From assembly GCA_964348885.1 (NCBI GenBank), contig CAYGEK010000001.1, positions 10,255-74,254 on the forward strand: a stretch of DNA of 64,000 nt, written 5' to 3'. A program made the translations under genes and the position numbers. The DNA comes from an uncultured Candidatus Saccharibacteria bacterium. GTDB taxonomy: Bacteria > Patescibacteriota > Minisyncoccia > UBA6257 > WO2-44-18. This document shows, one piece after another, positions 1,424 to 2,611 of this stretch. Positions within the stretch are counted from its first letter, which is position 1; each line of letters begins with the position of its first letter. The notes beneath the pieces were generated by a model. That model was not told where the DNA came from and searched no databases. It saw nothing but the letters and a program-made list of their open reading frames with translations.

Positions 1424-2611
1424 TTATTCCCCTTCGTAGACTTTTTTGAGCTCAGCCAGATCAAATTTTTTCATCTTGAGAAACGCCTGGGTAACACGGC
1501 CGATCTGATCAGGCGTGCCTTTGGCCATCATCTCATCCATAGCATCCGGCACGATCTGCCAGGAGACGCCGTATTTATCCTTCAGCCAGCCGCACTGCCC
1601 TGCCTGCCGCGTCCGGCCGGCCTTCCATTCACGCTTGAGCCACTTTCGGCCAAACCCAGTTTTCAATTTTTGCTCTCGATCAACCGCGGCTTGTCGAGTT
1701 GGAAACTCTTCATAATGTATAACTTGGGTCGGCTTAAAATTTTTCGTATACTCTGCCCCAGCGCCAGACTCATGCTCTCGCCAACGCTTTTTAATGTCTT
1801 GGGTTTGGCCGATGTACATAGAGCCGTCACCACAAAGAAGCACATAAACATAAAAAGTGTCCGGCCGCGGCGCAGGCAGGTCCGATTCCGGAACCGCGGA
1901 AAGCTTTTCCCAGTAGTAATCAATCTCCTGCTGGTCTTTGCAGTGGACCATCAGCGAAACTCCTTCGTTGAACGCGAATGCGTGCGGCTGGGCGCTTTCC
2001 ATGGCCGCAAACCACTGATTTCCAAGCATGAAGTCGGCGAACATGACATTCCCTTCCTTATCCGGCTCCATCCCTTTCGGATAGCGGGCAGTGGTGCCAC
2101 GTTTTGAATTTTTAAAAACTGATACCCAAAAATCAATCGCTTCGTCCGCCTTCCCGACCCCGGCCTTGGTAAATAAAAGCGACGGGACGATCATCGGGCG
2201 AGGCTCGCCTTTCGGATTGGTCAGAATAAGTTGCCAGGAAACGCCGTATTTATCCTGAATCCAGCCGTACCACTCGCTGAAAGGATACTTCTGAAGCGGC
2301 ATCAACGCCTGCCCTCCCGGGGAAAGCTTGGTCCACAGCTCATCAAGATGCGCTTTGGCATCCTTATCTTGTGACGGATCAAAATTCACGAAGAAAGAAA
2401 TGGACGGATTAATTTTGAAATACGGGCCCGCGCTGATCAGGGTGAAGTCGTGATCCTCAATCGTCATGTCCACCACATCCACCGAGCCTGACGGCGTATT
2501 ATTAAGGACGTATTTACCGTTTATCTTCGCGTTCCGGAATGCCGACACATAAAACTCCGCCGCCTCCCCCGCCTGCGTATCAAACCATAAATGAGTGGTG
2601 ATCTTATTCAT
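1424..2611 (-). CDS. Tandem PhnB-like / 3-demethylubiquinone-9 3-methyltransferase-like (VOC fold) protein with an in-frame GIY-YIG nuclease domain inserted in the second repeat
   Basis: Two repeats end in ...[17 protein letters not shown] and ...[16 protein letters not shown]. Between [12 protein letters not shown] and QCGW lies a roughly 96-aa insert [34 protein letters not shown]...[15 protein letters not shown] matching the GIY-YIG (UPF0213/YhbQ-like) pattern. Start moved to MNKITTH (ATG 2611) because the upstream part overlaps the neighbouring gene. Confidence 0.75.
   Translation of the reverse strand: [395 protein letters not shown]

Follow-up and report, generated by a model that had tools for sequence, protein, structure and literature searches.

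An in-frame GIY-YIG nuclease cassette with inverted-repeat ends in a PhnB-like protein of an uncultured Saccharibacteria bacterium, probably one copy of a widespread selfish element

The locus described here raises the question of how a complete GIY-YIG nuclease came to lie within a protein of the PhnB/VOC fold. It is found in a stretch of 64,000 nucleotides (nt) from an uncultured Candidatus Saccharibacteria bacterium (assembly GCA_964348885.1, contig CAYGEK010000001.1, positions 10,255 to 74,254), referred to below as the window. A preliminary description, made by a model from the sequence alone, had recognised the nuclease as an in-frame insert in the second of two PhnB-like repeats and had considered a domesticated homing endonuclease, an intein-like self-splicing insertion, or a genuine fusion linking DNA cleavage to ligand binding. 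Our analysis leads to a different answer. We regard the insert as probably a copy of a hairpin-ended, selfish element that encodes its own YhbQ/SLX1-like nuclease and is expressed only as an internal domain of its host protein.

Profile searches with the separate segments supported the architecture first proposed. The GIY-YIG family (PF01541) matches amino acids (aa) 253-321 with an E-value of 1.8e-16 (60.6 bits, cutoff 22.6), and the 95 inserted residues alone (D244 to G338, window 1598-1882; 1595-1882 and about 96 residues had been given initially) match with 1.2e-17, the reading frame being open across both junctions. The GIY and YIG tyrosines, the arginine, the histidine and the metal-binding glutamate typical of the superfamily are all present in a core of about 90 aa; an alignment of 14 cassettes shows no variation at Y13, Y23, H37 and E70, and very little at R33 (conserved in at least 90%). 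The closest solved structures are the UPF0213 proteins 1YWL (E-value 8.6e-16) and 1ZG2 (2.2e-15), with SLX1 as a weak match, which agrees with a complete and catalytically plausible module of the small YhbQ/SLX1-like type. In the core of the cassette open reading frame (ORF), the proportion of nonsynonymous differences (pN) is 0.29 and that of synonymous differences (pS) 0.84, i.e. the synonymous sites are saturated, and dN/dS is about 0.23. Because the catalytic residues are conserved and dN/dS is this low, the nuclease is probably active.

The host itself is a PhnB-like protein, matched by PF06983 (3-dmu-9_3-mt / PhnB-like VOC) in three stretches with an E-value of 4.3e-61 (205 bits, cutoff 24) and showing the beta-alpha-beta-beta-beta fold of the VOC family; the halves of its AlphaFold2 (AF2) model resemble the PhnB structures 3OMS and 1U7I (TMt 0.82-0.86). 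The first VOC repeat is uninterrupted, as had been stated, and the insert occupies a loop of the second. In the AF2 model of host plus insert (pLDDT 90.9, pTM 0.88), the GIY-YIG domain forms a beta-beta-alpha-alpha-beta-alpha-alpha lobe of its own (aa ~253-330), flanked by helix 227-237 on one side and by the final strands of VOC repeat 2 on the other. The nuclease is thus predicted to fold as a separate surface-loop lobe that leaves the host fold intact, in line with the independent lobe for which a structure prediction had been suggested as a check.

Homologues with an empty site exist. Among the best 120 of 8,000 scored PhnB homologues only seven carry the insert, forming seven clusters (P0001-P0007, 55-100% identity), and the approximately 113 others are proteins of about 300 aa without it. 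Since the insert-bearing homologues come from seven independent clusters and sources, the insert is not an assembly error; P0001, from an independent assembly, is 100% identical to the window protein with the same 395-aa gene call. In P0004 (locus L001), the cassette, LPAPQPNTFYVY...GRARQAG, lies in the equivalent loop of VOC repeat 1 and not in repeat 2. A functional, domesticated fusion with ligand-regulated DNA cleavage, or an intein-like splicing element without a Hint domain, would be compatible with the retention of the insert, catalytic motif intact, in six diverged PhnB clusters (55-69% identity) and with the confident, compact AF2 model. However, so few of the homologues carry the insert, the genes next to the host are unrelated, and the same cassette with the same DNA ends occurs in dozens of other proteins, at no fewer than 32 unrelated host sites. 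No Hint domain or intein block was found with Pfam, the first residue after the insert is variable (G, E, Q, H, K, D, T, A, Y, N, P or others) with no conserved C/S/T nucleophile, and the boundaries are inverted repeats of the DNA. Both forms of this explanation are therefore very improbable. As the cassette is merely read through as a separate lobe, the PhnB/VOC protein would be an incidental host and not a functional partner.

The extent of the element was taken from a comparison of 66 elements, corresponding to 65 distinct copies. The consensus of the left end is C CTG CCT GCG CCG CG. and that of the right end.CG CGG CAG GCA GG; the base following ...CAGG is free (C 44%, T 28%, A 16%, G 10%), and the two bases preceding CCTG belong to the host codon. 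The limits of conservation thus define the unit as CCTGCCTG...CAGGCAGG, which in most cases measures exactly 282 nt and is inserted after codon position 2. In the window it splits a glutamate codon between the second and third base (GA^G, with GA at 1882-1881 and G at 1598), the host sequence being ...AVPES before and QCGW... after the insert. When the 282 nt are deleted in silico, the sequence CCG GAA TCG GAG CAG TGC (PESEQC) results, which is the exact consensus of the listed empty homologues (...PESEQCGW...), and this reconstructed empty site has neither a target-site duplication nor a loss of host sequence. Over 32 distinct host sites the reconstructed target reads G (87%) A (75%) ^ Y (81%) G (65%). 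The codon that is interrupted specifies Asp at 18 of these sites, Gly at 6, Glu at 3 and Asn at 2.

The ends of the element, CCTGCCTGCGCCGCG... and ...CGCGGCAGGCAGG, form an imperfect inverted repeat with arms of about 20 nt. These can be arranged as a stem in which 8 base pairs (bp; CCTGCCTG/CAGGCAGG) are followed by a CG bulge, 5 further bp (CCGCG/CGCGG), a bulge of 4 nt and a variable helix of 5 bp. At their four-fold degenerate sites the 66 elements hardly vary (CCT 100% T, GCG 95% G, CCG 92% G, GCA 97%), and the third positions of CGG, CAG and GCA at the right end are 97-98% invariant. The covariation of the two ends was evaluated with 42 distinct 282-nt elements (alignment A3) and 500 shuffles. 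In the end pairing 91% of the positions were paired, compared with 29-50% in slid registers, and six pairs changed on both sides; four of five measures were reached by none of the 500 shuffles and the fifth, the number of further pair types, by 5. The clearest covarying pair joins the third position of an Arg codon with that of a Gly codon, both four-fold degenerate (GC 14, AU 9, CG 4, UA 2, GU 4), and another pair alters the amino acids on both sides (GC 29, AU 6). Because the ends are near-invariant at degenerate sites and the synonymous sites of the core are saturated, the ends are evidently selected as nucleic acid and the core as protein. A perfect 13-nt complementarity further inside (1646-1658 with 1800-1812, the codons of IGQTQ and TGFGR) showed no better covariation across the 42 elements than the shuffles; it was rejected as a conserved structure and is probably a by-product of conserved codons.

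A stem that joins both junctions could also belong to an RNA-level intervening sequence, in which the 282 nt would be removed from the transcript and the host mRNA restored. The long-range covarying end stem, which is present in the centroid fold of the element, agrees with such a process. (RNAalifold chose a shifted register, owing to the CCTG CCTG repeat.) However, removal from the RNA would make a length that is a multiple of 3, the lack of a terminal stop and the continuity of the downstream frame, all described below, needless. In Rfam no intron, ribozyme or other family was found at the element, in searches of both the element region and the whole window, which has three tRNAs elsewhere, and a group I or group II intron core could not be accommodated in 282 nt that a conserved ORF fills completely. 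The related mini hairpins described below occur equally in both orientations relative to transcription, and the mismatch types in the end pairing are strand-symmetric. We therefore give this explanation next to no credence. A sub-threshold match of the Rfam family MAT2A_D at the element (19.6 bits against a gathering score of 32, E-value 0.15) was discarded as chance.

The element was also searched by its ends only in metagenome DNA (CCTGCCTGCGCCGCG N{245,275} GCGGCAGGCAGG), an approach free of protein-based ascertainment, which gave more than 120 copies at least, of which 80 were analysed. The length is a multiple of 3 in 79 of the 80 (282 nt in 49; also 279, 285, 288, 291, 294, 297 and 300 nt), 78 are open in the expected frame, and the host frame continues downstream in all 80 and upstream in 77. 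Two copies, on the metagenome contigs L111 and L128, are decayed, one by an internal stop and one by a frameshift to 286 nt; the latter occupies a common HsdM-like site, RYVG..ED^G.PFE.KM. Because the lengths are multiples of 3 and the frame is open and continuous, the host protein is made by translation through the insert. The element brings along neither a promoter nor a start or stop codon and, as the sequences directly imply, would obligatorily be translated together with its host.

To gain an overview of the distribution, one genome per species was scanned for 185,579 species, which resulted in 119 loci. The 80 of these that were retained belong to Patescibacteria, Thermodesulfobacteriota, Nitrospira, Verrucomicrobia, Planctomycetota, Bacteroidota, Acidobacteria and others, and to one metagenome-assembled genome (MAG) labelled as an archaeon. 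In all 80 the cassette lies within a longer stop-to-stop ORF (130-1333 aa) and there is no conserved internal Met, in disagreement with a free-standing gene. When 1.84 billion cluster representatives were searched with a profile, 135 clusters (50% identity) matched with E-values below 1e-30, the cassette being internal to a larger protein in nearly all of them. With the insert alone as query, MsrB, DUF899 and type I restriction-modification (R-M) proteins were matched, always with a (D)LPAPRP start and an ...RQAG end. After removal of the cassette, Pfam identified ArgRS, RibD_C, cobalamin adenosyltransferase, an AMP-binding enzyme, TrmD, a radical-SAM protein, RecO, NOV_C, a PD-(D/E)XK nuclease and an Eco57I-type methylase, and in each host scanned in this way the domain match ran uninterrupted across the junction. 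The flanking sequences further indicated UvrB, DnaG, MsrB (at two different sites), Ogt, a SET protein, SNF2 helicases and many R-M subunits. The insert is evidently tolerated, also in housekeeping genes that are expected to be essential (ArgRS, TrmD, DnaG, UvrB). For 36 of the 65 distinct cassettes the nearest cassette lies in an unrelated host gene, such as UvrB (L005) and DnaG (L012) with 81% identity, and the nearest relative of the window cassette (73%) is found in a RibD_C protein (L006). Taken together, a mobile in-frame cassette with inverted-repeat ends is very probable.

Within the window the element is single, as no further copies were found there by tblastn with the insert or with both end motifs; a weak match at 24088-24136, antisense inside a ribonucleotide reductase gene, was dismissed as chance. 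The cassette was absent from 2.9 million viral contigs except for one weak partial match, and the plasmids contained no cassette, only distant free-standing YhbQ-like genes. Several loci are peculiar in themselves. A 662-aa ORF of an uncultured Zetaproteobacteria MAG (L050) carries two full cassettes in one frame, about 126 aa apart. L025 and L027, from MAGs of the same lake series labelled Verrucomicrobia and Planctomycetota, have an identical host gene and cassette, which is either a binning artefact or a very recent transfer.

The repeated occupation of certain sites brings the classical homing endonuclease gene into consideration, which, tolerated in frame, would cut the empty allele of its own host gene and spread only by double-strand-break repair into that site, its inverted repeats being incidental or linker-coding. 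The same site is filled in diverged homologues of different phyla in type I R-M proteins (...QDPN^EPAS, 14 loci), and likewise in MsrB (HVFD^GP), in Ogt and at the PhnB site of six clusters; the copy number per genome is low, and GIY-YIG is a known fold of homing endonucleases. However, the cassette consists only of a catalytic core of about 94 aa, without the DNA-binding domain by which homing enzymes of the GIY-YIG type recognise their site, and the NCBIfam model of group I intron endonucleases (TIGR01453) reaches only 16.7 bits with a cutoff of 56.05. The 32 or more unrelated sites have only G-A^Y-G in common, the nearest cassettes are often in unrelated genes, and homing does not need ends that are constrained at synonymous sites and covary. 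As the sole explanation, homing is therefore unlikely, although a homing-like component or a co-transfer with the host gene is also likely in the spread of the element, because the same sites recur in diverged homologues.

In a second cassette subfamily, which is found in HsdR-like proteins (L047, L056, L058, L061, L066-L068, L071, L073, L082), a local hairpin, CCTGTCTGCGTGCAACGCACAGGCAGA (WPVCVQRTGRK), is placed directly upstream of the GIY-YIG domain, and the right end (AGRNKP) is decayed; one member, L066, contains GRTGGAVNV three times in tandem. It includes the only one of the 80 genome loci that comes from an isolate, L071 of Tangfeifania diversioriginum DSM 27063. Judging from the decayed right end, the subfamily may be immobilised or domesticated, and it is the only one that looks so. 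In general the nuclease is under purifying selection and still looks mobile, for which reason the term domesticated, as used in the preliminary description, does not suit the family.

Small relatives of the element were found in addition. In 1.3 Mb of loci chosen for carrying the cassette, 122 mini hairpins of 18-63 nt, mostly 27-42 nt, were counted, where a rough estimate of chance gives about 1-10. They have the form CCTG[C/T]CTGC..loop..GCAG[G/A]CAGG, beginning with CCTG and ending with CAGG, and the architecture of the element ends, in which 8 bp are followed by a CG bulge, then by an inner stem of 4-6 bp whose variation is compensatory, and by a loop. The length is divisible by 3 in 97 of the 122, and 120 lie in stop-to-stop ORFs of at least 100 aa; 90 share one codon phase (xLPA...QAGx), and the two orientations are equally common (45 and 44). 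Most read LPA..QAG or LSA..QAG, with up to 8 within one 6-kb locus; the window contains none. In two cassettes (at L023:3270-3296 and at the corresponding place in L032) a mini of 27 nt sits exactly within the Arg codon CG^G of ...GR^ARQAG, so that both cassettes measure 309 instead of 282 nt, and removal of the mini yields the standard ...GRARQAG end, a natural filled and empty pair for the minis. That mini hairpins share the ends and nest inside cassettes also speaks against homing. By all appearance the full element is the same hairpin whose loop has taken up a nuclease ORF, and the minis seem to be its non-autonomous relatives. The preliminary description had rightly called the architecture, which probably reflects a mobile nuclease, unusual; it had missed the terminal inverted repeats, the exact 282-nt unit within a codon, the spread across phyla and the mini hairpins.

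As the open frame directly implies, the host ribosome reads through the N-terminal VOC part, the linker DLPAPRP, the GIY-YIG lobe, the linker GRTRQAG and the C-terminal VOC part, the two linkers being the translated inverted repeats. For the movement of the element the following course is conceivable. The nuclease may act on the structure into which the ends can pair (a bulged stem or a cruciform), on G-A^Y-G targets, or on both, whereupon the element would be moved or copied precisely and without target-site duplication, and the minis might be mobilised in trans as non-autonomous relatives. Copies would persist only in frame and at tolerated turns (Asp/Gly codons), and the repeated filling of one site in diverged homologues may include homing-like gene conversion after horizontal transfer. 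That the cassette's own nuclease drives the mobility is the assumption towards which we lean, while the specific hairpin-directed mechanism is doubtful. Somewhat short of an even chance is the wider proposal of an unrecognised class of prokaryotic mobile elements, whose nuclease would recognise the bulged terminal hairpin and mobilise both the element and a large population of in-frame minis of 18-45 nt, so that housekeeping and defence proteins of many phyla would continuously receive additional loops and a nuclease lobe.

Several points weigh against this interpretation. Movement is something we infer from comparative evidence, namely unrelated sites, incongruent nearest neighbours and nested insertions. 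With one or two copies per genome, the element resembles a homing element more than a proliferating transposon. The phase-2 position and the preference for Asp/Gly codons could reflect tolerated protein sites and not the specificity of the nuclease. The mismatches in the end pairing are symmetric (G.T 37, A.C 34), and since they are, a single-strand stem and duplex inverted repeats bound by protein are indistinguishable; taken as a whole, the element folds no more stably than shuffled sequences do (z=-1.2). The association of minis and nuclease was seen only in loci selected for the cassette. GIY-YIG enzymes hydrolyse DNA and are not known for strand transfer, so a role as transposase would need host repair or ligation.

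The coordinates of the features are listed in Table 1.

Table 1. Features of the host gene and of the inserted element in the window, and mini-bearing loci elsewhere
Feature	Position	Strand	Basis
Host gene, 395-aa double PhnB-like protein (PF06983, VOC fold) with repeat 2 interrupted	1424..2611 including stop codon	minus	ORF list, Pfam, 100% identical P0001, AF2
VOC repeat 1, uninterrupted	2225..2605, aa 3-129	minus	best Pfam stretch 3-129
VOC repeat 2, N-terminal part	1883..2194, aa ~140-243	minus	alignment to empty homologues, AF2 secondary structure
VOC repeat 2, C-terminal part	1427..1597, aa 339-395	minus	alignment to empty homologues
Element, very probably mobile, 282 nt, CCTGCCTG...CAGGCAGG on the coding strand	1599..1880	minus	conservation limit in 66 elements; alignment of 42 elements
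Left (5') terminal inverted repeat CCTGCCTGCGCCGCGGCCGG, encodes (D)LPAPRP	1861..1880	minus	66-element comparison, covariation with right end
Right (3') terminal inverted repeat CCGGCCGGACGCGGCAGGCAGG, encodes AGRTRQAG	1599..1620	minus	third-position invariance, inverted-repeat arm I4, covariation
GIY-YIG catalytic core with Y13, Y23, R33, H37, E70 (cassette numbering)	1649..1855, aa 253-321	minus	Pfam PF01541
Mini-bearing loci, including L015, L043, L058, L060, L078-L080, L127, L155, L160, L179, L185	e.g. L015:506-535, L060:3397-3414, L078:2741-2770

The 395-aa host protein starts with the ATG at 2611 (MNKITT), which lies within the minus-strand ORF 1424..2761. The mechanically defined ORF reaches 50 codons further upstream, to a TTG at 2761, and there overlaps the 3' end of the fn3/PG-binding gene (2628-4547); the real start is almost certainly the ATG, which matches the gene call in the source assembly. 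The neighbouring genes encode an N6_N4 methylase, the fn3/PG-binding protein, DUF5654 and MsrA, and no functional link of these neighbours to the element was found. The N6_N4 DNA methylase gene (PF01555, 528-1352, minus strand) lies directly downstream of the host gene, with no partner restriction enzyme identified nearby.

No earlier description of such an element was found in open-access papers and preprints, and on this basis it is apparently an undescribed kind of selfish element that is widespread. A possible reason for its being overlooked is that the family is almost confined to uncultured lineages. It would represent a third way for selfish DNA to reside within genes, beside introns and inteins, in which nothing is spliced, the insert is tolerated as an extra domain, and the transcription and translation of the host are borrowed. 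A structure-selective GIY-YIG nuclease would be a candidate for a new enzymatic basis of DNA transposition. The element may also be a natural source of domain and loop insertions in housekeeping and R-M proteins, and it would explain puzzling 'GIY-YIG fusion' architectures in metagenomic data, which calls for caution in reading these as functional fusions. In addition, the cassette marks permissive insertion sites in many protein folds and might serve as a compact insertion cassette for protein engineering.

Among the known systems, inteins are similar as selfish, nuclease-encoding in-frame inserts in conserved genes, often those of replication, repair or aminoacyl-tRNA synthetases, which are co-translated and have empty homologues. 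In contrast to them, the cassette has no Hint domain or splicing nucleophiles, apparently stays in the mature protein and is bounded by DNA inverted repeats; moreover, inteins normally carry a LAGLIDADG or HNH nuclease and not GIY-YIG. The GIY-YIG homing endonucleases I-TevI and Seg use the same catalytic fold for selfish spread, but have a C-terminal DNA-binding domain, translation signals of their own and an intron or intergenic location, none of which applies to the cassette. It likewise differs from the group I intron endonucleases, since TIGR01453 stays below its cutoff, no Rfam intron is matched and the 282 nt are fully coding. By sequence, UPF0213/YhbQ and SLX1 are closest, sharing the minimal catalytic core and the catalytic residues (35-45% identity between the cassette and plasmid-borne YhbQ-like proteins), and the structure-selective SLX1 fits an action on a hairpin or cruciform. 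However, UPF0213/YhbQ proteins are encoded by free-standing genes, are not inserted in other proteins and lack the LPAPRP/RQAG ends and the KTGFGRKW motif.

Transposons with terminal inverted repeats (TIRs) and MITEs, i.e. miniature transposable elements with inverted repeats, share with the family the inverted repeats, the coexistence of an autonomous element with miniature derivatives, and nested insertions. Here, however, there is no target-site duplication and no DDE transposase, the only ORF and candidate enzyme being a hydrolytic GIY-YIG nuclease, and the insertions are strictly in frame and become part of the translated protein. The repetitive extragenic palindromes with their associated tyrosine transposases (REP/RAYT, REPtrons) and IS200/IS605 combine short bulged palindromes with a small nuclease gene flanked by inverted repeats, and also make no target duplication. 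REPs are extragenic and tagged GTAG or CGTC (PMC3733652). The enzyme that goes with them, an HUH/Y1 transposase, has a separate start and stop codon, whereas the hairpins described here are intragenic (120 of 122 in ORFs) with CCTG/CAGG ends, and the enzyme is a GIY-YIG nuclease translated as a domain of the host.

The closest match to the minis is given by the Rickettsia palindromic elements (RPEs), reportedly described by Ogata et al. in 2000, which are palindromic repeats located in frame in ORFs and translated. RPEs are about 100-150 bp long, encode no enzyme and are restricted to Rickettsia. The family described here is unrelated to them in sequence. RPEs are also mentioned in a review on MITEs (PMC10969869). 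The minis share the behaviour of RPEs and are an analogue rather than a member of that group, distinguished by an autonomous version with a nuclease ORF in the hairpin loop and by a family that extends across many phyla.

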